61,519 bases of DNA, taken from a virus (Duplodnaviria > Caudoviricetes). The stretch spans positions 1-61,519 of the IMG/VR virus record IMGVR_UViG_3300042862_000334; one strand, written 5' to 3'. Made by a program: the position numbers and the translations under genes. Positions 1-41,636 of the stretch are shown piece by piece. How positions within the stretch are numbered: the stretch's first letter is position 1; each line of letters starts with the position of its first letter. The notes beneath the pieces are model-generated. The model worked only from the letters and a program-made list of their open reading frames with translations. It was not told where the DNA came from and did not search any database.

Positions 1-3000
1 AGTCAACTCACACCCCAAGAAAAACAATTCATAGCTTCTCAAAAAGAATGGGAAAAAAGAATGGTAAGAGAAGCAATAAAAGAAGCATCACTAAGTGGAG
101 CAACTTCTCTACGTTTTCCTACACCATATACTTTGAGTGTTATTGAAGGGTATATTAAAGGTGGTGGGTTAACTTCAACTACAGCAGGAGATATTATTGA
201 GTATTTAGGAGAAGATTACATTATTTTAAATGGTAGTGAAGATGACGGCGTAAGAATTATTCCTGTTAGAAATATGACAAAAGTTCTAATAGAGGACTTT
301 GAACAATTGAGAGCAAAAGGAGAAGTAGGAGAAGACGAAGATATTTATGACTACTATCTTGGAGATATTGGAGAAGGTGTAGAATCATCTGACGGAGAAT
401 ATTTTTACTACAATCGTAACTATAGACCACAAGGATTAGAAACTATTGAACAAGGTAGTATAGATGGGGCAACAAAAGAAACATTTGACTTATCAGACCT
501 ATCAGAAACACAACAAACAGTTGCTCGTAAATACGAAGAAATCGCAGAAATACTAAAAAAAGAAAAACCTGTTGAAGTAGTAACAGATGAAAATGGATTT
601 GATTGGTATGAAGCACCTATAACACAAGAGGACACACAAAACCCTGTTGTAGCTTTCTCGTTATCAGAAGAATCTCCAACTCTAAAATACCAAACACAAG
701 ATGGACAAGTGTTTTCAGACTACGGACAAGCTTTAAGAAACACACAAGGAGAAGATTTAGAAGCAGGATTAAACACTACTGAAGGATTTAAACCGTTATT
801 CACTATTTCTACAAACACTAATATAAATACAACAGAGGGTATGATTAACAATTTAATCAAATCAGATTTGTTGTCAGGTGAGAAGTATATAGAGAACGGA
901 GTAAATTATTACAAACCACAAGGAAAATCAGAAGCTAAACAAGTGGCTAATGCACAAGTGGTAAAAGATTTACTGCAACAAAAGTTCGGCGTAAAAGCTG
1001 TAAAAGTAAGTAAAGATGGATTTATTTCTATTATAGAAGAAAACAAGAGAGAGAATATTTCTTTGGCGGGAAGAACAATAAAAATAGCAGACTTGCATAA
1101 AATGGACTTCAAAGAGTTGAAAGATAACTTTGGAGAAGACACTGCTATAAATATATTAGCCAACAAAGAGTTCTTAAACGCTTCAAAACAAACAACAGTT
1201 TCAAAACAAGAATTTATCCCTGAAAATGAACTACAAGAAAAGCTTATAAACTTACTAAAAAAGTTCGGCATAAAAACATTAGCTTTTGAAGAATATATTA
1301 AAAAATATGAGATAAGAAATAAACTTCCTATAAACGCAAGAGCTTTAGCTGATTTAGTAAATAAAGTGGTGGCATTTAAAGATGGAAATATTGAGGAAGA
1401 CGACTTATTAGAAGAAACAGCTCACCTTATTGAAGCCTCAATTCCGCAAGAACAAAAAGAAAATATTCTTAGAAATATTCATAAAACTAGAGAGTGGGGA
1501 CAGTTCTCAGAGCAATATAAACAAATATATGCAACAGAGGAAGAAGTAAGAAAAGAAATCTTAGGTAAAGTCATAGCTAATTCGTTTAAAGAACAGTTTC
1601 AAGCAAGAAATACCAATCAAACGGAAGATAGCATCATAAATAAAATTAAAGAACTTGTAAAAGAGTTTTTTGATAGAATTTCCGCATACTTCCAAGACAG
1701 CTTCCAAAAAGAATTAGATACACTTAATAAAGCGTTATATACTAACTTAATGCAAGAAACTTTGCAGTTAGATTTAGGTAATGCAAAAGGAGTGTTTTTC
1801 AATGCAACAGAAGCTTCACCAAAAATCGACAACTTAAAGAATAAGCTTGATAAAATGGTGGAAGGTCTAAGACAAACCACTAGAGAACTTTCTAAGTCAG
1901 CCACTAATTCGGCGGATAGAGCATCTTTAAATATAGCTGAAGAAGCCTTAGAGAGAGGAGAATCTGTAAGAGCTATTGCAACACTTACACAATTAATTGA
2001 TTCACAAGTTAACCAAATTAACAGGTCTTTAGAAAACACTAAAGAAGGAGAGCTTCCAATTTCGGCAGAGGAAAATGTTGTAGCACAAGCACTTAAAGAA
2101 ACTATGATTCCATCTTTGGCAGAAGTTTCGGCAAAGCTAAATCAAAAAGACCCAACAGAAAAAGCTTTGTTAAATGAAGTGCGAGAAGTAATTTCAAAAG
2201 CAAATACAGTTTTTGGAAAAGTTACAACAGCAAGAAAAGCTACTTTCAATGTTATGGTGGATAGCATGATTGAGAAGTATAATATGACAGATAAGGAAAA
2301 AGCTGAATATCAGAATATGATTAATTTAGCTTTGTCAGGAGTACAAGCAGATACAGACTTTTTACACGCACATATTGGTTCTTTGTTACTAGCTAAAAAT
2401 CCACTTTTGAATATGGCAGGACTTATAACCGAGAGAATGAATTTAAGAAAAAATACTCTTGCTCAACCTCTTGTTAAAAAACTTGTGGATGCCTTCGGTA
2501 AATTCTCAAATTCAGATTTGTTAAAATTAATTGACAATAAGACAGGAGATTTAATTCAAGAAAGAGATATTGAGTTAGAGAACAAACTAAAATCCGCAGA
2601 AAAAGTTAAAATAGCAAATAGTATTTTAGCAGAAGCAGGATTAGAAAAAAGAACAGATGAAAATACAGACTTTAAAGAGTTCTTCAACAACTTAGAAGAT
2701 AATAATTTAGGTGTAGCATTCAATGCACAATACCGTCAATGGGAAGAAGATAAGATTAATGTTTTCTACTTCACCGAGCAGTATAGAAAAGCTATGAAAA
2801 TACACCCTATTAAAAACTTCTTTGAAAAAGGTGGAACGCTTACAAATGAAGAAATATCTCCAAACGCAATAGAAACAGATAGAGCTTTACGCGGGCAATC
2901 AACTCAAATTAGAATGAACGCTAAAAATGGTGTTTTGACTAAATCAGATAAAGCCGAGCTTAAAAAAGTTGAGAAGTTAAGAGCAGAACTTTCTAATCCA

Positions 3001-5931: not shown

Positions 5932-5983
5932 AAAGAGGTTTGTTTCAAACAAAAGAAAAAAGATTAATAAAATTATTAAATTT

Positions 5984-6013
5984 AAGGTGGGAGGTAAAAT
6001 TTCCACCTTTTTT
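5984..6013 (+). terminator. Rho-independent terminator after the giant gene
   Basis: AAGGTGGGA/TTCCACCTT stem followed by a T-run. Confidence 0.75.
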
Positions 6014-6063
6014 ATTTGTGTATGTTAATTATTTTTTGTATTATTGCACAATAAATTTTAAAA

Positions 6064-6414
6064 ATGAAACTAGCGGTGATAGGTAGCAGAAATTTCACAG
6101 AATATGACTTCTTCAAAGAAAAGTTAGAATATCTAACACAAAACATAGAAGAAGATATTGTATATGTAAGTGGTGGCGCTATCGGAACAGATAGTTTATG
6201 CAAAAAATACTGCCAAGAAAACAATTATGAACTAATAGAATTTTTGCCAGACTACAAACAATATGGTAAAGCTGCAACACACATAAGAAATAGTCAAATA
6301 GTTGAGTTTTCAGACGCTTTAATAGCGTTTTGGAATGGAAGTAGCCCAGGAACTAAATCAACGCTGGAAAAGGCTAAAAAGAAAGGAATAACAATTAAAA
6401 TAGTGAAGATATGA
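6064..6414 (+). CDS. SLOG/DUF2493 (YspA-like) protein
   Basis: Motifs AVIGSRNF, VSGGAIGTD, IRNSQIV, AFWNGSSPGTK. Confidence 0.8.
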   Translation: MKLAVIGSRNFTEYDFFKEKLEYLTQNIEEDIVYVSGGAIGTDSLCKKYCQENNYELIEFLPDYKQYGKAATHIRNSQIVEFSDALIAFWNGSSPGTKSTLEKAKKKGITIKIVKI

Positions 6415-7375
6415 AAGTAGTTATTAAAACATCTGATTTAGAAAAAGACCCAAACATAATATTAAGTATAGAAACTGCAAGATATTTAGCAAGTCTTTGT
6501 ACAATTGATTTTGATGAAAAATATATAGATATTCCAAAATACTTTAACGAAATAGAAAGATACCATGCAATCCACTATTTAAGATTTAAGCATATTGAAA
6601 AAGATTTTAAACAATTAAAATAGTAAAATTATGAGAGACTATTGGAAGGAATTAAACGACGAATACTTAAATTTCCCAAAAGAAGAAACAGACAAAAATA
6701 TTTTAGAATGGTCGGGAGAGTGGGGTAAAAAAAGTAAAAAACTGTTAGATAAATATGGAAACATATCTTGGTTAATGTTAGAAGCAGCAAATATGTTAAG
6801 AAACGAAGATATTTCAGAAGGAAAGTTTAGAGAATTAGTAAGGTTTTGTTTAGATAAAGAATTTGAAGATGAAAAATAAAGAACAGTTACCAGGAATAAA
6901 TCCACAAACATTTACATTAGTTTTTGATAAAGAGTTTCAAAAAGGAGATTACATTGTAGGGGTTGACCCTTACGAGAAAGAGTCTGAATCTAATTCTTTT
7001 GCCGCCGTAACAATAACAAAACCTAAAAAAAGAATACGGAATTCAAAAGATTAAAGGTTTCAACAGAGTAGTAAATACAGGATGGAGTTATATAACTAAA
7101 ATAGTAAAAATATGACAAAAGAAAAGTTAGCAGAAGAATATAGAAAAACAACTCCAAATCAAATGTATGGAGATAAGTTAGGATTTTTAGCAGGTTTTAA
7201 TTCCGCCGAAAAAGAAATAAAAAAGGAACTGAAAGATTTAAAAAACAAATACAACTCTTGGCTAAAAGAAATAGAAAATGTAAAACTAACTAAAACAATT
7301 AACCAAGAAGAAGTAATTAAATTAAGAGCTAAATTAGAAGTTCTTCAAGAATTAGAAAAGAAATTAAAATTATGA
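6411..7375 (+). CDS. Four small hypothetical proteins (6411-6623, 6631-6879, 6863-7054, 7112-7375)
   Basis: Tightly packed or overlapping ORFs with ATG starts. Confidence 0.6.
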
Positions 7376-7812
7376 CAAAAGAACAATTAGCAGAACAATA
7401 CTGCAACAAAATATATCAAGAAGCTGTTAAAGAAGATATGTATGCACCAGATGTGTACCAATCTAAAAAAGATTTTATTGCTGGATTTACCGCCGCCGAA
7501 CCAAAATGGATAAGTGTAGAAGACAAAACTCCAGAATACAATAAACAAGTTTTAGTAAAATACTTAAAAGGAAAGGAAGAAGTTATAACTCAAGGATATT
7601 TTCAAGATGTAGCACAAGAAACAGCAGATATATGCCATAAAAGTGCTGTAGAAAGAGGTAGATTTTCTGAAAATGGGATAGAGACAGTTGAATATTGGAG
7701 AAATTGTGGGTATGGTTTAACCTGGTTTGATTATGCAGGTAGACAAATTCAATCTTTGGTGGCAAAAACAAGTAAAAATAAGGTGATTACATTTATGGAT
7801 TTGCCGCAATAA
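7372..7812 (+). CDS. DUF551-like phage protein
   Basis: KWISVEDKTP...VLV...ITFMDLP pattern. Confidence 0.5.
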   Translation: MTKEQLAEQYCNKIYQEAVKEDMYAPDVYQSKKDFIAGFTAAEPKWISVEDKTPEYNKQVLVKYLKGKEEVITQGYFQDVAQETADICHKSAVERGRFSENGIETVEYWRNCGYGLTWFDYAGRQIQSLVAKTSKNKVITFMDLPQ

Positions 7813-7970
7813 AAGATAAAAAATAGAATGAAAGAAAAATTTTACTATTGCCAAAGAGAAATAGAAGGACAGTCAGAATGTAAACAACAATGCAACCACT
7901 GTAAAGAATACTATTATCCATTAGAACAAGAAAGAAAAATGGAAGATTTAAAAGAGTGGATAGAAAACAA

Positions 7971-8010
7971 AAACCCAAGTTGAAATTAATCTTCTTGGGT
8001 TTCTTTTTAT
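7971..8010. terminator. Bidirectional terminator at the +/- convergence point
   Basis: AAACCCAAG...CTTGGGTTT hairpin with A-rich left and T-rich right flanks, between converging gene blocks. Confidence 0.75.
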
Positions 8011-8026
8011 TTCAATTCTTTTATAT

Positions 8027-9740
8027 TTAATATATTTTAATGTCCGCCATCCAAAATAAGTCATTAATATCCCTTGAAGAAAGTTCGTTTGGGAACTCAA
8101 ACAACATATCAAACTCTTTACTCATTGCATCTTCACAGTGGAGTCTTAACATACACCAACCATTATCTACTTCAAGTTTAAAAATATCTTTGTGTTGTTT
8201 TAATAACATTAATTTTCCAATAAATTTCTTCTCATTAAAGCGTTTGGCTAATTCTCGCCATTGAGTTTCTGAGTATCTCATTTTAAAAAAATATAAGTTG
8301 TTACTATTTTTAAAAGATTGTGACTTTCTCTTAATTCTTTTTCCGTCCAATCGTTTCTACCTAATTTTAATTCGTACATTTTACCGCCAGAATAAAGGTA
8401 AACATCAAACCCCCAATACGTTATCAAATCAAATGACAACACACTTAAATCCGTTGTTATTAAATCTTTTTGACTATCATATTTTATTAAAGAGTCTACT
8501 TCTTGATGATAGTGAAGTGGGTTTGGATAATCCTTGTGTGGTTCTGTTAAAAATACTGCCTTCATAACAACTTTTTGTTTAAGTATAATTCTAACTTTTT
8601 AATTTCACTCAATTTCCAGTCATGTTGTTCGTTCAATATTAACTCAACCCCAACTAAATCTTCGAGAGTTTCTTGCTTCATTTTATTTTCGCGCAAAAAA
8701 GATAAAACAGAAACAGCAATTTTAGAAGAACTTTCAATCCAATAACTATTAGATTTTCTCCATTTAGCTTTCTCTAACCAACCAGAATCTTTAATAGAGA
8801 CTCTTTCTAGCCATTCTGTGACACTTTCTCCTTCTCTACGTCTATTATAACCTTCAGGTCTAAAAGAAGCTTCAAATGTGTGGAAATTAATTCCGTCTTT
8901 AAGTTCTATCATTACAGCTCTTTTAATAAGTTAATTACTTTTTCTATATTCTCAAATTTAATTACAAGACCTTCACTGTTATCGTGACTGTTCTTGTATA
9001 ATATCTCTGTTATTTTTTCTTTTTTGTCGGCATTTTATAACTCTTTTAACCGTTCAACAATTTCTAAAACTTCTTTTTCTGTTACGTCATATCCTTGAGC
9101 ACCTATTCTAGCATCATTCCCAAACCTTAAAAGAATAAGCTCGTCATCATCACTATTTTGATGTATTTCGTAGTATTCTCCATCCAAATGAAATCCTGGT
9201 AAAAATCCGTGATAGTCAAATGCGCGGGAAAGAGGGTAAAAGACAGAAAAAACTAAAACTTCCTCTAACCTTTCTAATTGTTGGTATAACTCAAATATAC
9301 CTTTTGTTAATGTTACTTTGTTCATATTTGTTTTGTTTTTAAATTTTACTTAATGAATGAAAAGAACCTTGTCCACAATAAGACTCTACTTGATACCCTC
9401 TCCATTCATACATACCTGAAGTAAATATATTATATTTTTTCTTTTTAGCTTTTTTACCTAATTTAGACAAAGCACTATAAAGAGGAGTATATAAAGAAGT
9501 TTCTCCGTCATAATGTTGATTCCAAAGAATATCTCTTCTTTTTTCTGCGTGTTTATGAAATTTCTCAAACAGTATTTCTAAACTTTCGTCAGTTTGTTCT
9601 TTTAAGAAGTTTTTAAATTTCTTTTTCCATCTTTTGTAGAATTCATCTTCTCTATTCCACTTTTCAGCCATTCTATCCATAGAAGCTTGACCTTCTTCAG
9701 AATCTAACCAATCTTTCCATTTTTCAAAATCTATTGCCAT
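8027..9740 (-). CDS. Cluster of hypothetical phage proteins (8027-8279/8350, 8278-8565, 8562-8912, 9035-9325, 9339-9740)
   Basis: Co-oriented, abutting ORFs; no recognisable motifs. Confidence 0.6.
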
Positions 9741-9777
9741 AATTGTTTTGTTTTTCGCCGCGTTAAAAATTAAAGTA

Positions 9778-9809
9778 CAAATATACGAATAAAAACTGAC
9801 ATAAACAAG
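9778..9809 (-). promoter_or_regulatory. Bacteroidota sigma-type promoter
   Basis: Minus strand reads cTTG-N20-TATATTTG (consensus TTTG-N19-21-TAnnTTTG). Confidence 0.7.
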
Positions 9810-9810
9810 A

Positions 9811-9842
9811 AAAACCTCCGAAAAATTAATTTCAGAGGTTTT
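9811..9842 (-). terminator. Terminator downstream of the GIY-YIG gene
   Basis: AAAACCTC...GAGGTTTT hairpin. Confidence 0.65.
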
Positions 9843-9860
9843 ATTTAGATTGAGTTTAAA

Positions 9861-10799
9861 TTAGACGTATATTAAAGATGTTTTGTTTTTACAAGGAGAG
9901 TTACCATTTAACATCTGTTTCATGTGGTTATAACTATATTCATAATATTTAGAAGCTTCACTCAAAGACTGATAAAAAATACCAGTTTCTGTATCGAGGA
10001 CATATTTCATCCAACCTCTTTTTTTATTTGCTCTTTTTAGATTATTGTTAAAATCTTCTAAATACTGTAAACAAGTATCATTACTATTTTTTAATTTATA
10101 ACCTAATGTTTGTGATGGCATATTTATACTTTTAGCAGCTTCTACTATAGTATTGAAAATATCCAATGTTTCTATATTTATAATTTTCCTAAAGTTTTTA
10201 CTTTCTTTCACAAAAGGTAAAAGTCCTTTTTCATAATCTTCTGCATATACGTAGGATGTATCATTATTTGTACGTCTATTTAACTTACTTTTAAAAGCAC
10301 TATAACATATAGGTAAGTTTTCAGAAGCATCTAAGGCACAATCATAAAAGATACCAGTTTCTAAATTTAACACTTCTTTTGCTAAATGATGTTTACCTCT
10401 TGTTTTACCAAACATTATATTTTTTTCTCCGTCTTGGTTACCCTTATTTGATTTTTTCCAATTATTAATCTGCTCTTGTGTTTTTATTACACCTACTGTT
10501 CCCTCACCACCATCTGTTAAATTAACCAATGTTCCGCCACAACAATCAGCACGTTTATAGTAGTCAATCAAAATACACTCTAGTTGACAAGCTGCATCCC
10601 ATGTTATATTATGAGATAAAATCTCTACTTCAAAGCCATATTTTTCAACAACTTTAGTCCACCACTTATTTCTGCCATTTTTTGTATAAGCTCTAGAGTA
10701 TTTTGGTTGATTTCCTATACCTATATAAAAAACCTCACTTGTACCTAATTTTGTATGTCTATAAACATAAGCATCTTTAACATCCTTTTTATCTCGCAT
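9861..10799 (-). CDS. Free-standing GIY-YIG homing endonuclease with NUMOD-type repeats
   Basis: N-terminal YVYRH...FYIGIG, E in LECILI, NLTDGGEG, and three repeats of (VLNL/IINI/VLDT)ET(G)IF. Likely start is MRDKKD at 10799. Confidence 0.8.
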   Translation of the reverse strand: MRDKKDVKDAYVYRHTKLGTSEVFYIGIGNQPKYSRAYTKNGRNKWWTKVVEKYGFEVEILSHNITWDAACQLECILIDYYKRADCCGGTLVNLTDGGEGTVGVIKTQEQINNWKKSNKGNQDGEKNIMFGKTRGKHHLAKEVLNLETGIFYDCALDASENLPICYSAFKSKLNRRTNNDTSYVYAEDYEKGLLPFVKESKNFRKIINIETLDIFNTIVEAAKSINMPSQTLGYKLKNSNDTCLQYLEDFNNNLKRANKKRGWMKYVLDTETGIFYQSLSEASKYYEYSYNHMKQMLNGNSPCKNKTSLIYV

Positions 10800-10815
10800 A
10801 GTATTTAAAAATGAA

Positions 10816-10949
10816 AAACTTCTAACAAAAACCACTACGAATAGTCTTTGAAAGAAGTTTCTCGGTAAAAATAATATCTTAAAAGTTAATCAGTGTTCGT
10901 AGCAAAAATTAACAATACAAATATACGAAAATTAATTCAGATTACCAAA
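10816..10949 (-). promoter_or_regulatory. Promoter plus two-hairpin kissing-loop 5' leader
   Basis: TTTG-N20-TATATTTG at 10949-10918; hairpins at 10816-10860 and 10885-10913 with complementary loops CTACGAA/TTCGTAG. Confidence 0.6.
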
Positions 10950-10968
10950 TTGTTTACAATATTTGTTA

Positions 10969-12230: not shown

Positions 12231-14709
12231 TTATTTAATTTTTATTCCCTTCAAATTTTCAAGAACCATCTTAAACTCTCTCATTATTGTATCTTCTAAC
12301 GGCTCATAGTCACCAGTTTCTTCTCTGTATTCTTGTTGCGAATTTTCACTATTCCACAAATCTATTTTTATATTGTGATTTTCGCCGAAAGAATTAAAAG
12401 AAACAGAATCTATAAGATTATCAAGTGTATATGAAAACCATACATCATCTCTCTCATATTTATTCCATAGTTTTTCGTTTAAGTCTTGTACTATTTCTAG
12501 GGGTGTTTTTTCTCTACTCATCTATTATTTATTTAATTCTAAAAATTCTTCTACTACTTCTTCAGTGTTATCAAATGCGTAAAACACATCTTCTTGCTCT
12601 CTTAACCAGTCTATGAATTCTATTAATAGTTCTTTTTTCATATTATAAGTTATTTAAATTAAAAATGATACTTTATCTTTTACTTTAAAAATAGCACTCT
12701 CTAGTTCCATTAAAGCATATCCTAAATCTTCTACATTACTGCCTTTTCCCATCATAAAGCTTTGGCTTTTACTATCTAAATAGTCGTCTATTTTAGTAGA
12801 CATTTTTTCTACATATTCTAAACTACTTTCTACAAAGCTGTCTATTTGTTCATAATCTTTTTTAGTCATTTTATAAAGTATTTAATCGTTTATTTAAAAG
12901 TTCAATTTGCCTCTTTATATCTTCTTTTTGCGCAATTCTGTCATTTTCTTGCTGTTCTAGTTGTTTTGCTATTTCTTCTTCCATCCAGTTTTCAATTTCT
13001 TTTTCGCCGAAACCTAAAACAGGAATAGGAACATAAGAAAAATCCCCTCGAGTAAAATCCTCGTAAGGAATTCCATCATCATTAAAAACTATAATACGGT
13101 CTTTTTCAACTTTGAAAGAATAGTGACTTAAAAAACTATCAAACTCCATAGTTAAATAATCCGAATTCATACCTAACAAAGATATATAACAATTTTGTTC
13201 TGAAAGTTCTGATTCTTTATCGGAAAGAATATTACACACTTCCCATAATTTTTTTAAATTAAGTATTTCCATTTTTATAAAAATTTTTATTTAAGTAGTG
13301 GCATTTAAATTGCATATCTTGAAACTTACCTTTACCTACTCTTTCATTTGTTTCAGTATCTGTTATGTACCAAAAACTGTTAATATTACCTTTATTTGCA
13401 GTATATTGAAACCTTCTTTTGTTTATTTCGGGCATTTCTACATGCTCTAAAATAATCTCTATCATAAATATCGTTTTTTAATTACTTTTGTCCAATAATC
13501 TGTTGTTACTTTACCTTTATCACTATGACTTGTCCAAACACAAGGGTGTTTTTCTTTTGCCTCTTTTAATCTTTCTTGCGCCGATTTAGATTTGTCTGTA
13601 TCGTGCTCAAACGCGAGGTAACATTCCCAAAAATGCATATCATCTTCTGGTCTAAAGATTAAAGCAATTTGATAACCAAAACAAACAAAGCTCCAAATAG
13701 GATTCCACTCATGTCTAAAAGAGTCGTATTTAGTTTTCCATCCTAGACCTACAAAATCAAATCCAAATTTTTTAGGGTCTGAAAATCTGTAGTTTAAATA
13801 CCTATCATATAGCTCTGAGAAAGACCATTCAGTTAATTTATAATTGCCCTCTCTTCTATTATGTTCTTTTATTCTTTTTAGTTCTTTTACCGCCTCATCA
13901 ATAGCTTTTTGCGGAGTTGCTTTTTTCCAGGTGCGGGGTAAAAATATAGGAGTACCTATTGCAACTTTTCCAAAATAAAACTTTAATTTGGGCGGCTTAA
14001 AAGGTGAAAAGTAAACAGACAGCCACTCAAAGTTTCTTAAAAACCAATATAGCTTTGAATATTTAAATTTTATCATTTTATATTAGTTAAAGGGTAACAG
14101 TTTAAAATATCTTCTTCATCTTGCTCTGTTACATAACCATCTCTCATATTATCAACAGCTTCTTTCAAAGCTTGTTCTACGTGATATTTAGCAAATTTTT
14201 TCATTGCGGTAAGTGTAACATTTCTATTAATGTTTCTTTGTTGTATATTGTATAAAAATTCTTCTGCTGTCATAATTTATCTCTATATTTAAAAGGGTGA
14301 TTTGATTCTTCTGGAATATTACTCATTCCTTCCATGTCTAATAGGTATAAAGCGTGCATATTATCAACAATAGTTACACCTTTGTCTTTAACCCTTTCGC
14401 ACACACTACAACTACAACCGTTACCATCTCTATAAACTACTTTTCCAACTCTATCTAAAAACCACTGTTTTCTTTTTTCGTATTCTGTCATAATTTATTT
14501 TCTTCTTTAAAAACGTTTAAATAATAATTAGCCGTTTCTTCAGACCAACTGCTCGTATTTTCTAATTCTTGGTTTTGTATTACCCATCTCCCAAACTTAA
14601 TAGCAAACTCTTCTGCTATTACTTCAAGCTGTTCTGCTACGTGTTTTCTGTTATAATCTTTATCAATCCAATCACATAGAGTATTAATAAAATTTTCTTT
14701 TATTGTCAT
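12231..14709 (-). CDS. Cluster of small hypothetical proteins (12231-12521, 12654-12869, 12871-13272, 13259-13465, 13462-14076, 14073-14273, 14270-14491, 14488-14709)
   Basis: Chain of overlapping start/stop ORFs. Confidence 0.6.
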
Positions 14710-14910
14710 TTTTATTTAATTTTTAGTTTACTACGTTGTAAATACACTAATTATTTTTCAATCTCGCAAATGTTTATTACTTTATTTCTATTTTCTGTTT
14801 TTTTGAGGTACTCCGTATTAACTTTTTGCGGGAAATTAGCAATACAATCTAAACAACAAAGTACAAATTTAGGTTTATAAGTTTTCCAATCTTCTCTTAA
14901 AAATATTTTT

Positions 14911-15825
14911 TTATCCATTATCTTCTAAGGTTAAAGGTGCTGACATTCCTAAGCTCTTCATATCTAAACAAGTTTTTTTATAAGATTTTGATTTCTGACT
15001 TAAATAATCATTATTTTCTATTAAATCAAACAAAATATCTTGCATTTCATCTTCTGTAAAATAACCTGCTCCACAATAACCCCAACCTAAAATACAAGTA
15101 CTTCTACAAATGTAGTGTCCGCTATCCGTGATTTTATTCATCATTGAAGTAAGTATCTTAATTATAGTTTGTCTTTCTTCTTCTGTCGCTTCTACTTCAA
15201 TTTTTTCTCCCGAATACTCTCTAAACTCATCTACTTTAATACCTCTTTTATCAAAGATAGCAGGTTCTTCCCTAATCAACACCTCTCTATCGTATGTAAG
15301 ATAAGCTGGCAGTGAGGGGTTTTGGGGTGCGAAGTCCATATTTTTAATATATTGCCACGAAGACATAAGACCGTAAAAATATGACTTAAAATCCTTAACA
15401 TCTAAAGCTACAGGAATACGCACAAGAACCTTAACACCTTTTTTAGAAACTGATAAAAATGAAGCTATAACAAAATCATAGGTATCAAATAAATACTGCT
15501 TTAAAGCTACAGCTACATCTTCCTCTAAATTGTCTATGTCAACTAAAAGAATACCTGTATAAGAAACTATATTTTCATATTTTCTACCTGTTCCGTCCAT
15601 TACACAACAAGGATTAAAATAGAACAGTTGGCTTTTTAATTTATCTTTTCGTTTTTTATCTCCAACTTTTGAAGCTTCTTCAATTTCTTTAAAGACCTTT
15701 AAGGTACTTTCTTTAGGCGACTGTATTGCGGAAAGCATTTCTTTAAGAGAGCACATTCCTAAGGGAATAGTTTCATAAACAGAACTTGGGTAATACTGGA
15801 ATTTAGTATCTAAAATATTATTCAT
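14911..15825 (-). CDS. VirE-N/BT4734-like primase-related protein
   Basis: LVDIDNL and FLSVSKKGVKVLV motifs typical of the Bacteroidota BT4734/VirE N-terminal family. Confidence 0.6.
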   Translation of the reverse strand: MNNILDTKFQYYPSSVYETIPLGMCSLKEMLSAIQSPKESTLKVFKEIEEASKVGDKKRKDKLKSQLFYFNPCCVMDGTGRKYENIVSYTGILLVDIDNLEEDVAVALKQYLFDTYDFVIASFLSVSKKGVKVLVRIPVALDVKDFKSYFYGLMSSWQYIKNMDFAPQNPSLPAYLTYDREVLIREEPAIFDKRGIKVDEFREYSGEKIEVEATEEERQTIIKILTSMMNKITDSGHYICRSTCILGWGYCGAGYFTEDEMQDILFDLIENNDYLSQKSKSYKKTCLDMKSLGMSAPLTLEDNG

Positions 15826-16519
15826 ATTTTTTTAAATCCTGTAGGAGCTGCTCCTAAAATTATACTTCGATATATTAACTTTTTATAATATTTTGATACT
15901 TTTTTAGTTTTTAAAATATCCCTTATTATTTCTTCTTGCCGCGAATCTTCTAAATAATAATTATTGAAAAAACCTTCTTTTTTAGATTTGCCACTTGCTA
16001 TTAATTCATCAATATTTGCACTTGGAGTAGCTTCTTTATATAATGCTCGATATATTTCCAACATTATTTCGTCTATTTTATTTGCTTTCATTTTTTTCGT
16101 GTTGTATGATACATTGAATATCTTGGATTATAACCAATAGGATAATACTCACCATTAGTGTGTAAAAAAGCGTCAACTTCAATCCAGTCATCAGTATTGT
16201 ATAAATTAGCCTCTATTTTACATCTCCTATCTTTATCGAATAAACATTTGATATACTCCCAATTTTCATCATCACAAGCCATACCTGCTTGACCAAATTC
16301 ATCTTGGTGTTCTTGAATCTCTTTAACTGTTCGATACTTAAAATCCCAAGGTAATAGATGTTCAACTCGCATTAACTCATTGCAAACTGATGATACCACA
16401 TACGTCTTTCTACCTAAAGCGTATCTAAAAGCACAAAATAAAACAATTTCTTGGTCTAACGATAAGGTTTCTTCAACCTCTACATATTTTCTTCCTATTT
16501 TTCTAAATAATTCTGCCAT
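15822..16519 (-). CDS. Two hypothetical proteins (15822-16091, 16088-16519)
   Basis: ORF track; the second has the AFRYALGR motif seen in phage hypothetical proteins. Confidence 0.6.
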
Positions 16520-16748
16520 AAGTATTTACATTTATTAGTTTCTTTATCAAAAGGTGGCTCTATAAAAAAAGATTGATAAAATTCATCTGCTTTCACCGTA
16601 TATTATTCTCTATAAATTATAAACCAATCTCTACTATTGCCTTTATCATAATGACATATCCACATTTTAGATTGTCTTATATATTCTATTTTCGGCGAAA
16701 AAAGCTTAAAAAGAAACAGAAAAATTACTGCCAAAATTAATAACTCTA

Positions 16749-16916
16749 TCATAACGGTAAATTTATTTTATGTTTTTGTATTGTTAATACTCTATAAGGG
16801 TCTTTACAACTAGTTTCTTTTAAATACTGAGATAGAGTTTGTACATAAACCTTAATTGTGTTTTGAGAGTAATTCTTATATCTCAATTTATTTTCAAAAA
16901 TTTCGAGAACTTTCAT
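16749..16916 (-). pseudogene. Internally deleted copy of the tyrosine recombinase (55 aa)
   Basis: Translates MKVLEIFENKLRYKNYSQNTIKVYVQTLSQYLKETSCKDPYRVLTIQKHKINLPL*. The first ~43 aa match the N-terminus and KINLPL matches the C-terminal KINLPI of 40833-41630. Confidence 0.85.
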
Positions 16917-16922
16917 CTGCTA

Positions 16923-16972
16923 AGTATTGATTTTATTAGTATTTTATTATAGTTGAGTATATATAATAGTTA
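16923..16972 (+). other. attI-like site of cassette array 1
   Basis: AGTATTGATTTTATT...TAGTTGAGTATATATAATAGTTA is shared with 41637-41686; identity stops right after the GTTA of the first cassette. Confidence 0.75.
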
Positions 16973-16981
16973 GCACCAATA

Positions 16982-17626
16982 CTACGAAACTGCACAACCG
17001 AGAACATATTGTCCTACATTTGGGTCAACGCAATTACGAATTATTTGGTCTTTTCTGTGTTTCATTTTATATTCTCGTAAATCAAAATAACCTTTTTCAG
17101 AACTTCCTCTTTGGTTGTGAGTTAATCCGTCTTTAATTTCAGTTTGTGGTATTTCAAAGTTTGCCCAAAATAAGTGTCTACCAAGTTTTGCAGTTGGTTT
17201 TACAAATGGTTCGTAATAAGGCTTTACATTTTCAACTACAAACTTTATATCTGTGTTCTTTGTAAAGTTCTGTAAAAAGGTTATTTCAGCCCACAATCTC
17301 ATATCAGGCATTACAGCATCGTAACTTCCGCTTTTACTTGCCATCATTCTTACTTTGCTATGGCTTTGGCAAGGTGGAGAACTCCATATAAAATCAAACT
17401 CTCTCCAATTTTTAGCCAAATAATCGTGTGCATCAGTAACTATTACATTATCGTTTGGGTGTAATTGCTTGTAAACATTTGCAATTTCTTCGTTGTATTC
17501 TATTGCAGTTACTTCTACATTTTCCCAATGTTTGCGGTTTCCTCCAATTCCAGCGTATAGGTTTAAAACCCGTACTGGTGCTAACATCGGTTTGGCAAAA
17601 TTGCCGTTTTCGTTTTCTTTTGACAT
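16982..17626 (-). CDS. C5-cytosine DNA methyltransferase (short form), cassette cargo
   Basis: Motif I VLNLYAGIGG, motif IV SPPCQSHS, motif VI VENV; start codon lies inside the attC-like site. Confidence 0.8.
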   Translation of the reverse strand: MSKENENGNFAKPMLAPVRVLNLYAGIGGNRKHWENVEVTAIEYNEEIANVYKQLHPNDNVIVTDAHDYLAKNWREFDFIWSSPPCQSHSKVRMMASKSGSYDAVMPDMRLWAEITFLQNFTKNTDIKFVVENVKPYYEPFVKPTAKLGRHLFWANFEIPQTEIKDGLTHNQRGSSEKGYFDLREYKMKHRKDQIIRNCVDPNVGQYVLGCAVS

Positions 17627-17696
17627 TTTATCTTAATTTAAACATTTGTAATTCTAATGAAGTTTTGTGTTCGGCAACTTCGCCAAGCCGTAGGCG

Positions 17697-17939
17697 TTAG
17701 GCAACATTTAAAGAAGCCCACCAAATATTAAACTTCTCCATAGCAATCTTTTCTGCATTTTTTCCACCGACACAATCTTCATAGTGATAAGGTGATTTAG
17801 TTTCTCCATCAGCGTGTCTTAATCCGCTTCTAATGCAGAAAAAACCAGCACCATCTGTAATTTCAAACCAATCTATCATTGTCATTCCAATCCCGAATTT
17901 AAATTCAGGTCGAAGTTTTAATATCTGTTTTTTAGTCAT
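17697..17939 (-). CDS. Hypothetical cassette protein
   Basis: Fills cassette 2; its TAA stop is the TTA of the GTTA core. Confidence 0.65.
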   Translation of the reverse strand: MTKKQILKLRPEFKFGIGMTMIDWFEITDGAGFFCIRSGLRHADGETKSPYHYEDCVGGKNAEKIAMEKFNIWWASLNVA

Positions 17940-18080
17940 AATAAACGTTGCCTAACAAAGTGTATAAGCAATAGCCGTTAGGCGTTTCAAACTATTGCAG
18001 TTGTTAATATTTAATTTTCTACATCTAATCAAGTTCTGTGTTCGGCTACTGCTCATACACTCGACCGTTATGTGTAATTG

Positions 18081-18893
18081 CTACCATTCCGTTCCAAATA
18101 AAGATTGCGCTTGTAAATCTTTTTCTTTTCTTTTTTCTTCCAACGCTTTTTTAATTCGTTCTTCAATCAAATTACAGTATTCATTTGATATTTCACTTCC
18201 AATCCAATTACGGTTGTTTAAAATACTCATTTTTGCAACTGTTCCGCTTCCCATAAAACAATCATAAACCAAATCACCTTCATTGCTCCAACTTAAAATG
18301 TGGTCATTTGCAAGTGCTTCTGGAAATACAGCAGGGTGTTCGCCTTTTTGTGGGGCTATATACCAATAGTTGTTTCTTCTGCTAAATTCCGCACTTGGTT
18401 TTCTACTCTCTATTTTATGTTCGCCAGTTACTAATCTTCTTCCTACTCCGCTTTTATCTTTGCCAAAAGAAGCATTTGGTTTGTCATAAATTAGATTTGT
18501 AGTATTTATTTTTCCTTTTGAAAACACGAACATATACTCAAAGTTTTGTGTATAGCATTTATTACTCCCTACTGCACCTCCACCATCTTTTATCCAAATC
18601 ATTGTGTCGTGTAAGTTGAATCCAATTTCTTTGAAATATAGTGCTTGTTTAAATGATGTTCCGCTTTCGTTTCCTTGAACAGTTGCATCCGAAATAACCC
18701 AAACTAATACCCCACCATCTTTGGTAATTCTAAACAACTCCTTTGCAATATCTTCAAAAGGGAAAGAATATCCATTGTAAGTTCTTAGTCCATCATAAGG
18801 TGGGCTTGTTACCGTTAAATCCACAAAGCAATCAGGCATCTTTGCCATTGTTTCTAAATTGCTTTCATTGTAATTCTTGTTTATATCAATCAT
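18081..18893 (-). CDS. N4-C/N6-A DNA methyltransferase (beta class), cassette cargo
   Basis: TSPPY precedes HPAVFP and DCFMGSGT; likely start is MIDINK at 18893. Confidence 0.85.
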   Translation of the reverse strand: MIDINKNYNESNLETMAKMPDCFVDLTVTSPPYDGLRTYNGYSFPFEDIAKELFRITKDGGVLVWVISDATVQGNESGTSFKQALYFKEIGFNLHDTMIWIKDGGGAVGSNKCYTQNFEYMFVFSKGKINTTNLIYDKPNASFGKDKSGVGRRLVTGEHKIESRKPSAEFSRRNNYWYIAPQKGEHPAVFPEALANDHILSWSNEGDLVYDCFMGSGTVAKMSILNNRNWIGSEISNEYCNLIEERIKKALEEKRKEKDLQAQSLFGTEW

Positions 18894-19086
18894 ATTTTTA
18901 AATTTTTCAAATTTATTTTTGCCATCGCTCAAAAAAGAAAAGAAAAAGTATTCCGTTTCAAATTGAACTTTCTGCTATTAAACCGCAACTACACATAACA
19001 AGGTATTTGCAAAATTGCCCACCAACATTTGTGCTTAATTTGAAGTATCTGCAAGGGCAACTTCGCAAATACCCAACCGTTATCAC

Positions 19087-19386
19087 TCAGCTTGGCGAGT
19101 CGGTTAAAAGAGATAACATTGCATCATATCCAAAAACCTGCTTTGTTGCTTCTTTTGTATCGTTTTCATCTGATTTTAGATTTAATGAATAGGAACTTCC
19201 GTAACAGGAAACCTTTTTATTTTCAGCATCTACTATACAAAATCCCGCAGAAACAGGATTTAAGTTTCTCATACTTGAATGCTCTACGAAACAAGGAAAT
19301 ATTATAATTCCGTTGTATTCTTTAATCTTAACATATTTTTGTTCTGTATTCATATTTAGTGGAATAAAAAGCCGAAGTGATAACAA
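19087..19386 (-). CDS. Hypothetical cassette protein
   Basis: Fills cassette 4; PVSAGF...GSSYSLNLKS pattern; start uncertain. Confidence 0.6.
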   Translation of the reverse strand: MLSLRLFIPLNMNTEQKYVKIKEYNGIIIFPCFVEHSSMRNLNPVSAGFCIVDAENKKVSCYGSSYSLNLKSDENDTKEATKQVFGYDAMLSLLTDSPS

Positions 19387-19523
19387 ATGATATAAAAGAT
19401 TTTCGGCTTGGTTTATAAATTTAATTTTTGGGTTTGTACTTTTTAATTTTGGTCTTAAACTGAAAGGTTCGGGATTTATCCTGCCGAAAAACCTCTCATA
19501 TCATCGACCGTTATAAGAAATAG

Positions 19524-19863
19524 CTACTTTACGTTTTCAATCAAATCTATTTCAACTCGATGTTTAGTATGTGAGTGATAAGAATAATTAGTCAATACTT
19601 GCGTTTCTGTTTTATAACCTAAACGGCTATCTTTTACCTTTTCAATTAATTCTTTTTCAAATTCATTTTCGGCGTGCAAAACTATCTTTGCTTTACCTTG
19701 CCATATTACTACCTCTGTTTTCATAATTCTATTTTGTTTATTTAGTTACTAATGTTGTTGCAAACCACATAAAGAATAATCTTGTATAGTTCTTACCGTT
19801 TACTTTATAAGTTGGAAATTTCTTAAAGCCCATCCATTGTGTGTGAAATTCTATTTTCATCAT
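19524..19863 (-). CDS. Two small cassette ORFs (19524-19724, 66 aa; 19738-19863, 41 aa)
   Basis: Both lie inside cassette 5; the second (MMKIEFHTQW...) was translated by hand. Confidence 0.5.
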
Positions 19864-19961
19864 ATTTAGTTTAAATTATCCGCTACTTCTTATAACAGCA
19901 ACTACAACTCACCAGCCGAAACTACTCACTGCATAGGCTGGCGTGATGTAGTTGCAAAACG

Positions 19962-20120
19962 TTAGAGCCGTTTAAGGGTGTTTACATTTACCGCAAAGAA
20001 TATTGCATTTACAACGATGTTGAGTATTCCGCTTGCAATTTTACCATCTACCAAAAAGTAAACACCCATACAAAATAGGATTACCTGAACAATCATTAGT
20101 GCTATTATGAACTTTCTCAT
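19962..20120 (-). CDS. 52-aa two-TM membrane peptide in the partial 6th cassette
   Basis: MRKFIIALMIVQVILFCMGVYFLVDGKIASGILNIVVNAIFFAVNVNTLKRL*; its stop is the TTA of the GTTA core. Confidence 0.55.
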   Translation of the reverse strand: MRKFIIALMIVQVILFCMGVYFLVDGKIASGILNIVVNAIFFAVNVNTLKRL

Positions 20121-20143
20121 TTTTAAATAATTTTTGTGTTTAA

Positions 20144-21800
20144 TTAATAATTTTCTTCAAGAACTGCCATCTGTAATTTTTCCAAAGCATTTTCGCTTAA
20201 AAATTGATAAACAGAATCGTCGTTAATTTTTACATCCATTATAGAGAATCCACCTTTGTAACCTGTTGTTGTGTCAGCTTTTTCATAATCTCCAATTACT
20301 TCAAAATTTACGTTGTCTAATTTAATGTTATGCGTTTCCATTGTTTTTGTTTTTTAAAACTTCGTTAGCTGACTTTTCTAATGCTTCCGATTGTAGTTTG
20401 TTTATAAATTGGTTCTTTAAATCTTGTTGTTTTTCTTCTGAAATACTATCTAATATTCCTGTTTCTACGAAAAACCTAAATACTTTTTTTTTGATTTTAG
20501 GCGGTTTCTAAATACTCTTCTTCTATTAACTTTTTTATATCTATGTCATTTAGGTCAGTGCAATCTTTTAATAGAGCTATAAACAGTTCTAATTGGTCTT
20601 GTGGAATTGCAAATCGCGCCAAAGAAAATGAAACATAGGGGAAACAGCTATCATCAAGTTCTACTTCTGCTAATTCACATCCAGAAATACCCTGCTTTTC
20701 GTGATAGTAAATATGAGTTATAGTATATTCATTATCTTTTTTAATCCATAAATGCTGTTTTATCTCTTGTGGCTTATTTTTGTCGTCTATGCAAATGACT
20801 TTAGGCTTGTTCATTTTCCTTTTTAAAAATTTCTAATAGTTGTTTTATGTTATATGTTTTACCATTATTAAAATCATCTTCACTTTTAGCATATTTATTG
20901 TTATCATATTTATGCTGATAGTATTTTTTATCAATAAATGAAGCAAATTTTATAGCAAAATCTTCAGCTATTTTTTCACATTTTTCAGCATCTAACATTA
21001 AGTAGTGCTTATTTTCATAATTAAATTGTTCTTTAAGATTCATAACTCTCAATTTTTTTTAAAACTTTTTTCCAATATTCTGTGGACTCTTCAATGTCAT
21101 TTACAAAATTCCCAGCATCTGATAGTATTGGTAAACTTGGACTTGCACTTATTATTTTTTTAACGGCGATTATTGCACATTGTTTGGCTGATTCTATATT
21201 TGAAGTTATCTCATAGCCGTCTTCACAACTTACCCAGCTATAATCTCTGAACATTTTTACTAATTCTTCAGCTTCTTGTTTTGGTGTTTTTATCATTTTT
21301 TAGGTCTTTTTATACAACTATTTTCAAAATCTAACAAATCTGAATCTTCTCTTTCAGCTACATAGTGTGGCAATTCACACCATAGACCATCATCATCAGT
21401 GCAATAATAATTGGTAAACTCAAATACCCCATTAAATTCTTTTACTTCTGGTTTACTACACCAACCAATACATCTGTCATTATGTGGATGATTTTCTTCA
21501 GGTGCAACCCAATCTATCCAATCTGGTACTCTACTCCAATCTATTTTCATAATTCTAATTTTAAATTTATTTTTTCGCGCATACGAGGCACGAGTGCTTA
21601 AAGATTAAAAAGACAGACTAAAAATAACAGCTTTTAAACCGTCTATAATCATGTATATAAGCAGTACTTCTTTCTTCCTGTCCTTCAATTAAAGGAGCTG
21701 TGCTACCATCAATCCATATTTCAAAAGCTTTCTGCTCTTCTACAGGTAGTTCATCAATGAAGATGTATGGTATCTCCGAACCTTCTTTATATATTTTCAT
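20144..21800 (-). CDS. Cluster of small hypothetical proteins (20144-20341, 20497-20814, 20801-21052, 21033-21296, 21293-21550, 21618-21800)
   Basis: ORF track; overlapping chain. Confidence 0.6.
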
Positions 21801-22249
21801 AACTTTTTTAAATTACAATATTGTTGATATTGTTTTTCTATTATACTTTCATCTACTTTTCTTTTTCGACCCATATTACGAGTTAAAGCCTCTTTTAAAG
21901 TTACATCAAAGTAAACTACTTCTGTAGGTACTTTAAACTTTTCAAAGTTTTTTTGGTACTCTATGCGTAAATTAGTTGCATCGACTATAACATCTTTTCC
22001 GCGCTTTAACCAAAAACTTATAAGATTATCTTGAACAGCTGTTATTTGATTCTCTAAATAATTAAAATCATTTCTACTGTAGTATTCTGATATTGTATCT
22101 TCAAGATATCCATAATGAGCCTCTCTTAACTTATCTCTATTTACGACAATATACCTTTCTGGATTGTGTCTAACTGTTGTAGAAGCAAATGTACTTTTCC
22201 CACTTCCACTAATTCCACATAAAATTATTATTTTACTCATGTCTTCCAA
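21797..22249 (-). CDS. Polynucleotide kinase-like P-loop protein (AAA_33)
   Basis: GISGSGKS, NRDKLR, VDATN, RNMGR. Confidence 0.8.
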   Translation of the reverse strand: MEDMSKIIILCGISGSGKSTFASTTVRHNPERYIVVNRDKLREAHYGYLEDTISEYYSRNDFNYLENQITAVQDNLISFWLKRGKDVIVDATNLRIEYQKNFEKFKVPTEVVYFDVTLKEALTRNMGRKRKVDESIIEKQYQQYCNLKKL

Positions 22250-22847
22250 TAGTTAATTTATTTTTTAGTAGTTGTTGTATTAGCTCGTAAGAAAACAAGC
22301 TGTATTCTCCAAACATATTATAGTAAGCATCAATTCCAACATCCATACTTTTATATTTTCTTATTTCCTTAATTACAGGATTTTCATCTCCATGTAAATG
22401 TCCACTTAAATGAAATGCGCCGTCCTCTTGGTAATTCCAGCAAAATTGCGGGAAATGTGAACAGCAAATAATTTGACCTTCAATATTTAATTCTAAATAG
22501 TCTCCTAAATAAATAAGCTTATCACATTCATGCCAAGTAGAAAATAACTTTCCTCTGTTACAATGATTGCCAAAAAGCATAATAACATTTTTACAAACTA
22601 AACTATTTAAAAACTGTTCGTAGTTTTTATCTTGCATCATCGTATCCCCGCACAAAACAAGTAAATCATTCTCTCTTACGAGTTTATTAGTTTCAACTAT
22701 AATGTGGTCATTCATGTGTTCTACGCTGTCAAACTTTCTACCAAAGTCTATCACTGCCTTATGGTCTATGTGAAAATCTGACGAAAAATAAACCTTATCT
22801 ACATTTAAGGTTTGTTTTGGGTAGCTTGTTAATATTTTAACTTTCAT
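22233..22847 (-). CDS. Metallophosphoesterase
   Basis: SDFH, CGD, GNH, SHFP, GHLH. Confidence 0.8.
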   Translation of the reverse strand: MKVKILTSYPKQTLNVDKVYFSSDFHIDHKAVIDFGRKFDSVEHMNDHIIVETNKLVRENDLLVLCGDTMMQDKNYEQFLNSLVCKNVIMLFGNHCNRGKLFSTWHECDKLIYLGDYLELNIEGQIICCSHFPQFCWNYQEDGAFHLSGHLHGDENPVIKEIRKYKSMDVGIDAYYNMFGEYSLFSYELIQQLLKNKLTIGRHE

Positions 22848-23827
22848 AACTTTTTATATTCTGGCTTAATTAATCTATATATCTGTTCATCTATTCTTTT
22901 ACCGTTTCTTAGAGAAAATAGGATATGTTTATATTTATAGTCTTTTATTATTTTGGCAAATTCTTTATCTGATTCTATATGTTTATATTTTAAATATTCT
23001 AATTTAATAGTAGATTCAAAAAAAGAGAATAAACCTATTAAATATTCCTCATACTCTCTAACAGAATTATAAAACTCATCTGGATATCCACTTAATAACT
23101 CTAAAATACTATCGCCGTTTCTCAAACAGTCCCAAACAGCTGTAGTTGACATTTGTGACATCATTTTGTGTAATCTCAAATATTCAGCTCCTTTTATTTT
23201 ACAACGCTCTCCGTTTGAAAATTTGACTACATATCCTTCTTCATTATCTTTTATATCCTCACATAGTTTTTCTAAAGGTGTATCTTTTCTGTGAATTCTT
23301 GCGTGAGGTAAAAGCCAACAATATATATCTTGTTCATCTCCTGTTTTAGTATTAAAAACTGCTGTTAAAATTACATCTTCATAATCTCCATAATCCACCA
23401 CAATTCTATTTTCTTTAAAAATTATTTCAAAACAGTATGTGTTATCTTTATCTAAAGATTTTAAATCATATTTTGAAAGTAATTCAAATCCTTTTATAGC
23501 CTGTTCAGAAGTAAAAGAACCTCTTGATGCAAAAACCCATTCGCCGCCAAAAAAGAATAAAATACCTAAAGAACCGTCGTATTTAGTATATATCTCATAA
23601 TCGTCAGTTACATTAGTTCTACCTTCAGATAAATTAAAAAACTTCTTAAAAGGTCTTGCAACTATATTTCCCGAATTATCTACAACAAGTCCACGACATT
23701 GTAAAGTTACTTCATCCCAAAGACCCTCATACTGCACTCTATCTGTATAATTGTAAACCGTTAAAGGTAATGTTGGATGAACTTGACTGTAAAGTAACCC
23801 ATCTGCTTCATATTGTTTTAAATTCAT
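22844..23827 (-). CDS. T4 Rnl1-like RNA ligase
   Basis: QCRGLV, RPFKKFFN, motif I KYDGSLG, EGYVV, KIK. Confidence 0.85.
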   Translation of the reverse strand: MNLKQYEADGLLYSQVHPTLPLTVYNYTDRVQYEGLWDEVTLQCRGLVVDNSGNIVARPFKKFFNLSEGRTNVTDDYEIYTKYDGSLGILFFFGGEWVFASRGSFTSEQAIKGFELLSKYDLKSLDKDNTYCFEIIFKENRIVVDYGDYEDVILTAVFNTKTGDEQDIYCWLLPHARIHRKDTPLEKLCEDIKDNEEGYVVKFSNGERCKIKGAEYLRLHKMMSQMSTTAVWDCLRNGDSILELLSGYPDEFYNSVREYEEYLIGLFSFFESTIKLEYLKYKHIESDKEFAKIIKDYKYKHILFSLRNGKRIDEQIYRLIKPEYKKL

Positions 23828-36558: not shown

Positions 36559-36563
36559 AGTTT

Positions 36564-41630: not shown

Positions 41631-41636
41631 AGTTTG

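Follow-up and report, generated by a model that had tools for sequence, protein, structure and literature searches.

A cassette array behind an in-frame deleted Xer-like recombinase gene in a freshwater phage, probably serviced in trans

Introduction

Integrons are defined by a specialised integrase and are seen as bacterial devices that express cassettes from one promoter. In the classical integron, the open reading frame (ORF) of a cassette precedes its recombination site, attC, and reads away from the integration site, attI, with the promoter on the attI/intI side. Bacterial chromosomal integrons with decayed integrase genes are also known, e.g., in Xanthomonas, where the array persists behind a broken recombinase gene. 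Here, a related arrangement is described in the virus record IMGVR_UViG_3300042862_000334, the whole of which (61,519 nucleotides, nt) was analysed and is called the window below. At locus A (16749-20139), a cassette array (array A) lies behind a recombinase gene that was reduced to 55 amino acids (aa). By tblastn, only one intact homologue of the recombinase was found in the contig, i.e., at locus B, 24 kb away, with its own attI and array (array B).

In phages, clusters of attC sites lacking an integrase nearby (CALINs) have been described. The passages of Qi et al. 2023 (PMC9892861) on this subject report IntI-type integrons in a few phages and 17 CALINs, one of which, with methyltransferases, is located in the virulent Polaribacter phage P12002L, and IntI1 recombined five of six phage attCs tested there. 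The paper names no partner recombinase, and 'Xer' occurs 0 times in its text. In our comparison, similarly shaped hairpins were present in P12002L, but neither a recombinase nor an attI of the phage Xer-like family was found there. Full-text searches, with most subscription journals outside their coverage, returned no description of the recombinase-attI-array family reported here.

Results

The attI-like core and the 5' end of the recombinase gene recur at the two loci, as the preliminary description of this DNA had proposed. In self-BLAST of the window, 16783-16972 was 83.7% identical to 41497-41686 over 190 nt (E 2.5e-52). The attI core of locus A (16950-16972) is identical to that of locus B (41664-41686) in 23/23 positions, neither being assigned to a strand, and contains two direct TAGTT(G/A) repeats 17 nt apart. 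Its GTTA (16969-16972) is the crossover core. The identity between the loci stops just past it, i.e., GCACC follows in locus A and TAAGC in locus B. The spacer between start codon and attI (16917-16949, minus strand) includes a 15-nt block (16924-16938) that is identical in locus B and is kept in many relatives.

The recombinase stump (16749-16916, minus strand) comprises residues 1 to ~48 fused in frame to the last 6-7 codons of the gene. By tblastn, its residues 1-45 were 84.4% identical to the intact recombinase (E 1.3e-17), and the homology reaches approximately residue 48 by eye. The tail reads KINLPL, against KINLPI in the full gene. Aligning the two loci thus gave a shared 5' end and attI and an internal in-frame gap of ~640 nt (~213 codons), by which the whole catalytic domain is gone and zero catalytic residues are kept. 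Against Pfam PF13495, the stump scored 25.5 bits (cut-off 27) and covered profile positions 2-39 of 85. The recombinase of locus A was destroyed by an in-frame internal deletion. The internal deletion of a once complete copy fits a weak DNA match that extends into the gene downstream of the stump, i.e., 16681-16728 against 40699-40747, with a score of 46 (shuffles: mean 24, standard deviation 3.7, maximum 37). This downstream gene is a 49-aa ORF (16603-16752, minus strand) with weak DNA likeness to the 3' flank of the intact recombinase. Its ATG overlaps the TGA of the stump (ATGA), it matched no Pfam family, and at the protein level it was not significantly similar to the ORF that follows the intact recombinase (score 25, shuffle mean 22).

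In the 48 aligned codons of the two loci, 12 synonymous and 14 non-synonymous differences were counted, i.e., a proportion of synonymous differences (pS) of 0.45 and of non-synonymous differences (pN) of 0.12. Because of this pS, the sequences argue that the two platforms are old paralogues, or that one was imported from a related phage, rather than a fresh copy. The duplicated platform that had been proposed is therefore a real second platform, with attI and cassettes, but not a recent one.

Array A was said to hold five full cassettes and a partial one, and this count stands. On the plus strand, each unit starts with GTTA and ~12 specific bases, and it ends with the reverse complement of these bases, TAAC, a hairpin and the next GTTA. 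This layout is the hallmark of a circularly permuted integron cassette. The ends were complementary in at least 13/16 positions in 4/5 array-A units and in nine array-B units; in the remaining unit of array A, i.e., A4, 9 nt match by eye and a 1-nt indel follows.

All cassettes of array A are on the minus strand, and their attC scores below are from the covariance model R1 described in the next paragraph. Cassette A1 (16970-17696) carries a short C5 cytosine methyltransferase-like ORF (16982-17626; PF00145 at 7e-11; PHROG methyltransferase) and an attC at 17573-17708 (68.3 bits, E 5e-13), with ends complementary in 13/16 positions. A2 (17697-18067) has an 80-aa ORF (17697-17939) of no known family and an attC (17944-18079; E 1.4e-9; ends 14/16) that is 87-95% identical to the attCs of four other contigs with other ORFs. 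An N6/N4 DNA methyltransferase (18081-18932; PF01555 at 7.5e-41) is encoded in A3 (18068-19079; attC 18987-19091, E 5.7e-11). A4 (19080-19510) contains a 99-aa ORF (19087-19386; attC 19372-19522, E 1.9e-9), and A5 (19511-19961) two small ORFs (19524-19724 and 19738-19863; attC 19884-19973, E 2.9e-6; ends 14/16). The truncated cassette A6 (19962-20139) encodes a 52-aa hydrophobic protein (19962-20120). It is considered to be the degenerate distal end of the array because it has no attC; no R1 hit was found in array A beyond 19973. In a low-depth contig of run X2, one of the sequencing runs introduced below, a hairpin arm abuts 20139/20140, and a 65-aa ORF (20144-20341) may therefore once have been a cassette and since have become part of the backbone. 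In A2, A6, B6 and B9 (17697, 19962, 44392 and 46230), the stop codon of the ORF is the TAA of the recombination core (TAA|C on the coding strand). The cassette ORFs and the crossover site are tightly interlocked. The cargo of the two arrays had been called completely different, which is not correct for one pair. A3 and B1 are both N6/N4 methyltransferase cassettes, 31% identical overall, with nearly identical last 25 residues and cassette ends that are 87% identical.

The model R1 was built from eight array-B hairpins aligned on the minus strand and was searched over the whole window with filters off. Its consensus has a 5-bp core helix, a 5-nt one-sided spacer and a 19-bp stem, and 16/24 pairs are compensatory. 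Thirteen matches fell below E 1e-5, i.e., the eight training sites and exactly five sites in array A (E 5e-13 to 3e-6), all of them on the minus strand. The next-best match (E 0.0077) was the opposite strand of a training site. The array-A hairpins scored 38-68 bits, below the training set. Arrays A and B carry attCs of one class and polarity.

For the family-wide search, R1 was applied to 65 sources, i.e., 64 of the 80 related loci described below plus L094; the 16 loci omitted were apparent duplicates or had almost no upstream DNA, some loci overlap, and a few hits are duplicated. At E up to 1e-4, 296 matches were obtained, 296/296 on the recombinase strand. These counts are lower bounds because the default filters missed the hairpins of L188. 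Two hairpins there (5686-6275; 51 and 80 bits) were recovered with filters off and in the genome search. In the best 150 matches (144 distinct), 96.5% of cells pair, against 65.9% in shuffled and 35-52% in slid controls, with 945 compensatory cells against 269 in shuffles, in an alignment that leans toward structure because it was fitted to the model. Two G-T pairs hardly vary (142/144 and 143/144). With DNA parameters, the bottom strand gave the more stable fold in 260/276 distinct hairpins and the top strand in 15; in one, the two were equal. The spacers are asymmetric, with 1-2 nt facing 4-5 nt. At outer-box position 11, A-against-C (top) or G-T (bottom) was found in 263/451 candidate cassette end pairs; this end-complementarity screen is noisy (451 hits, 207 in shuffled DNA), and only its position-11 signal was used. 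The hairpins therefore have the features of attC sites, i.e., imperfect inverted repeats, RYYYAAC/GTTRRRY ends and strand-specific irregularities, the last differing in kind from the classical ones.

The intact gene of locus B encodes an Xer-like tyrosine recombinase of 265 aa (40836-41630, minus strand), the presumed helper. It matched PF00589 (Phage_integrase) at 1e-35 and PF13495 (SAM-like N-terminal domain). The best solved structures were XerA 4a8e and 5hxy (E 2.9e-33 and 1.1e-25), and R131, H215, R218, H241 and Y250 are present in the alignment to XerA. No NCBIfam cut-off was reached, i.e., 179.9 bits against 220 for XerA_Arch, 161 against 335 for XerC, 152 against 330 for XerD and 140.5, in two stretches, against 265 for IntI (TIGR02249), so that membership in Xer is not given by a curated model. 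Against VchIntIA (2a3v), the alignment splits, and query residues 178-207 (30 aa) stand opposite IntI4 182-259 (78 aa). Because 30 residues face 78, the IntI-specific insertion is absent from the recombinase.

Array B (41684-46830, minus strand) holds ten cassettes, of which B3 is atypical, and its last attC is truncated. B3 (43158-43465) begins with a tiny palindromic unit (43158-43199) with matching GTTATAAGTAA and TTACTTATAAC ends, and its 70-aa ORF (43223-43435) lies between short hairpin arms, as if inside an attC loop. A 204-nt direct repeat of 85% identity (36545-36745 and 46859-47062) surrounds a block of ~10.3 kb with seven genes, the intact recombinase and array B. The whole platform B may have arrived or moved as a module between these direct repeats.

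The IMG/VR scan gave 99 relatives among 111 candidate stretches, and 80 of 50-70% identity were kept. Approximately 80 viral contigs have the same recombinase, attI and array layout. With a hairpin finder, the arrays of these relatives were located almost always directly upstream of the recombinase gene. A strict attI core pattern, TAAC|TAT(T/C/A)ATATAT, was found after a cassette-specific end and 55-80 nt before the start codon in 72/80 loci, and close variants in the remaining 8/80. In 183/188 inter-hairpin intervals from 50 loci, the longest ORF was on the recombinase strand. All ORFs of arrays A and B are also on that strand and read toward attI, so that each attC is upstream of its ORF and the ORFs follow the direction of all neighbouring phage genes. 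A search with the stump added one more truncated case (L188) and two new full-length cases.

In cellular genomes, relatives of more than 50% identity were present only on contigs of metagenome-assembled genomes with the same layout. Homologues from Bacteroidota, ~40% identical, had no upstream arrays. Four of them on genome contigs (L103, L138, L157 and L160) leave no room for the IntI insertion and have a few similarly shaped hairpins downstream instead of upstream of the gene, which may be an inverted cellular version or chance hits.

In cultured phages, an 'integrase' 38% identical to the window enzyme is encoded by Polaribacter phage Freya (L001, Freya_10 1-10959; L192, Freya_1). Genome length differs among the ten Freya isolates (43,978 to 48,920 bp), and the 'integrase' changes its position accordingly. 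Starting 67 nt upstream of this gene, Freya_1 and Freya_10 share 99.8% identity; the DNA before that point is unrelated, and the break is just 5' of an AAC core. The isolates may represent gain and loss at an attI-like site in cultured phages. In the relevant passages of Bartlau et al. 2021 (PMC8776804), the Freya 'integrase' was read as a sign of temperate lifestyle.

Cassette exchange at array A was examined in other contigs and in sequencing runs. A3 (exactly 18066-19083) was 90.3% identical to L074 5030-6047, where it lies between two model hits and where the recombinase is 53% identical to the window enzyme. The run data were k-mer contigs from four runs (X1, X2, X9 and X14), compared over 14000-23000; X1 may be the source run of the window. 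Contig joints with sides of less than 30 nt were disregarded as repeat artefacts, and coverage holes were not counted as evidence (in X2, X9 and X14, A1 and A4 are covered poorly or not at all). In X2, one contig contains the left backbone and stump (14715-16905) with two differences. A second has an A1-like hairpin with 12 differences, then 882 nt in place of the 375 nt of the window, then A3 with zero differences over 1017 nt, and unlike DNA from 19082 on. A third covers A5, A6 and the backbone from 19509 on. Three contigs of X9 diverge upstream of 19509. The strain break points, 18066, 19082 and 19509, are cassette cores.

At least one array-A cassette occurs in other arrays, and in X2, which comes from another lake metagenome, A3 is flanked by other neighbours than in the window. 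With A3 present elsewhere with exact ends, the sequences suggest that array A is no dead fossil in appearance. The backbone relative L082 has a 304-aa gene 89% identical to that of the window; it is highly mosaic and uninformative on the content of locus A in relatives because it is not collinear there. All k-mer contigs break at a 41-nt exact repeat common to loci A and B (16876-16916), and for this reason the array that follows the stump cannot be phased in them. The deletion junction (~16770-16782) lies inside contigs of X1, X2 and X14.

Platforms with a deleted recombinase were found again in other genomes. In G004 (92% complete), there are two intact recombinases and an orphan array (156570-160079) with a perfect attI and six recombinase codons, and the orphan attI and 5' end are identical in 57/59 nt to one of the intact copies. 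G003 (complete) has one recombinase and three attC clusters. The second array of G001 extends to the contig end, with its attI end outside the contig. The protein collection also contains N-termini cut short after 29-31, 41, 51 or 53 residues and followed by unrelated tails or by a different in-frame tail. A second in-frame form of 57 aa comprises 53 N-terminal residues and a NIPL tail. Three variant proteins from other metagenome contigs (P0006, P0008 and P0009) change at one common point, i.e., after 41 N-terminal residues of the recombinase, each continues in an unrelated, G+C-rich frame, and something may have been inserted in their gene.

The window is the entire 61.5-kb virus record. Its G+C content is ~30%, and beyond 8 kb almost every gene is on the minus strand. 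By PHROG matches, a 1956-aa virion structural protein, DNA polymerase, DnaB-like helicase, exonucleases, RNA ligase, polynucleotide kinase and endonuclease V were recognized. No terminase or capsid gene was matched in the window, and it is a genome fragment for this reason. The public runs containing the stretch are labelled as lake-water metagenomes, and the source is a virulent-type freshwater phage. Megablast of 22-42 kb against isolated phages gave no match, and the sole match in an exact 29-mer scan of viral contigs was the contig of L002. Many short intergenic repeats were found by self-BLAST at 54000-61500, e.g., 55496-55575 against 58361-58440 with 98.8% identity, and these are unrelated to the cassette hairpins.

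Discussion

In the best reading of locus A, which we hold with moderate confidence, array A would still be serviced in trans by the intact enzyme of locus B or by the enzyme of a co-infecting phage. The 265-aa recombinase, or that of a co-infecting relative, would bind attC hairpins folded from the bottom (coding) strand, cut at TAA|C and excise cassettes by attC x attC recombination. The excised cassettes would be inserted at either attI, so that both arrays share one enzyme. Expression is probably by read-through of phage transcription and not from an attI-side promoter, because the cassette ORFs share the strand of the neighbouring phage genes and read toward attI. The stump may have kept its frame and native stop by chance or by the overlap with the start of the next gene (ATGA). 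For service in trans speaks the attI core, which is identical in 23/23 positions despite the pS of 0.45. The shared class and strand of the hairpins in both arrays point the same way, and continued cassette traffic is supported indirectly by A3 in other arrays, by the break points at cassette cores and by relatives such as G003 and G004, in which arrays outnumber recombinases.

Several points weigh against it. The conservation of attI may predate the deletion, and blocks with ends near conserved hairpins could also be exchanged among related phages by homologous recombination. The X2 contigs are linked to locus A by similar depth (about 15), and neither an excision circle nor an attI junction variant was seen directly in the run contigs. 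The contig is a fragment, and another recombinase copy may lie elsewhere in the genome. The two recombinase-less clusters of G003 have neither attI nor remnant in the stretches examined. No intact recombinase is present in G006 (complete, 34,984 nt), which nevertheless has an attI, two good hairpins and a 28-aa remnant. Because this array outlives any resident enzyme, intact sites do not prove current activity.

Array A could instead be a fossil from the era of its own intact recombinase, the strain differences having come about by homologous recombination and phage mosaicism. This is possible, but we consider it unlikely. The persistence of attI, remnant and attCs in G006 would fit it, as would the mosaic structure of L082, a close backbone relative, and the degenerate distal end of the array, where A6 lacks an attC. 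Hairpin scores of 38-68 bits are expected for sites outside the training set and are compatible with drift. Against a fossil speak the break points at 18066, 19082 and 19509, which coincide with cassette cores, and the match of A3 in L074, which spans exactly one cassette. The five array-A hairpins also keep the polarity and pairing of the family, and a compatible enzyme is encoded in the same contig.

The preliminary description had left open whether the mini-protein is a relic or a modulator. A relic is most likely, and nothing favours a modulator; decay of the stump fits the other truncated forms, which have quite different junctions. It is improbable that the 55-aa peptide is functional, e.g., that it modulates recombination at array A as an N-terminal fragment bound to attI or to the full enzyme. 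Its frame is open to the native stop, the exact protein was present on 13 contigs of the protein collection, and the 57-aa form is a second in-frame case. In codons 1-24, three synonymous and no non-synonymous differences from locus B were counted, whereas codons 25-48 carry all 14 non-synonymous ones. Less than half of the SAM-like domain is represented in the peptide, its Pfam score does not reach the cut-off, and the ends of other remnants at 6, 28, 29-31 and 41 residues, with unrelated tails, fit random decay. The recurrence of truncated forms is no evidence of selection because the search could find only forms that keep the N-terminus.

An assembly chimera joined through the repeat shared with locus B, at which all k-mer contigs break, is hardly credible, since the deletion junction lies within contigs of three runs, the 55-aa protein was called on 13 contigs, the 41-nt repeat is shorter than ordinary reads, and one array would sit behind the stump even if the right sides were swapped.

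Other roles of the recombinase were set aside. The gene can be explained without lysogeny by its conserved neighbour in ~80 contigs, a cassette array. A hijacker of Xer/dif was rejected; the adjacent site is an attI with cassettes and not a dif site. An inverton or shufflon was also rejected; no inverted attI-like pairs were seen, and all hairpins have one polarity.

The system shares several features with classical integrons. A tyrosine recombinase gene adjoins attI, insertion is at G|TT of a GTTRRRY-like core, and each cassette ends in an imperfect RYYYAAC...GTTRRRY hairpin, the outer part of which is complementary to the cassette start. The hairpins have a fixed polarity with respect to attI and fold better from the bottom strand. 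Unlike in classical integrons, the host is a phage, and the enzyme lacks the IntI-specific insertion (30 residues, 78 in VchIntIA) and scores 140 bits where the IntI model asks for 265. The orientation is also not the classical one, i.e., the ORFs read toward attI (183/188 intervals and both window arrays), with attC upstream of the ORF. The identity of the strand is marked by two conserved G-T pairs and a spacer of 4-5 against 1-2 nt.

Array A, with five attCs (17573-19973) and only a stump nearby, falls under the definition of a CALIN, i.e., two or more attCs with no functional integrase nearby. The orphan DNA methyltransferase cargo and the flavobacterial phage setting are similar as well. 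Unlike CALINs, array A retains an attI and a stump of its recombinase, and its genome encodes a compatible enzyme. Compared with XerA (4a8e and 5hxy), which gave the best sequence matches and has the same length and catalytic residues, the phage enzyme is below the family cut-off (180 against 220 bits) and is set beside a cassette array and attI instead of dif. A role in chromosome dimers is inconceivable in this context. The decayed-integrase integrons of bacteria differ from locus A, where the same small genome also encodes an intact paralogue and the decay is a clean in-frame deletion.

More broadly, we regard as an evenly balanced proposition that these phages carry a widespread undescribed class of integron, with a small Xer-like enzyme without the IntI insertion, inverted cassettes whose ORFs are read with phage transcription, G-T-coded strand choice, one enzyme that routinely serves several arrays and redundant copies that decay, as in the stumps of 55 aa here, six codons in G004 and 28 aa in G006. 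If this is true, locus A would be a natural trans-complementation experiment, and the system would be a living analogue of the Xer-to-IntI transition. The cassette logic of integrons operates here in virulent-type phages, with a plain Xer-like enzyme, reversed gene orientation and, in some genomes, several arrays. The cargo, i.e., DNA methyltransferases and many small proteins of no known family, resembles counter-defence and accessory genes. Phages could enlarge their pool of swappable genes without copying the enzyme if several arrays are served by one, and phage CALINs would then gain a concrete partner to look for. The Freya isolates of Polaribacter phage may serve as a cultured model, and the phage system would make the origin of folded-DNA recognition in tyrosine recombinases testable.

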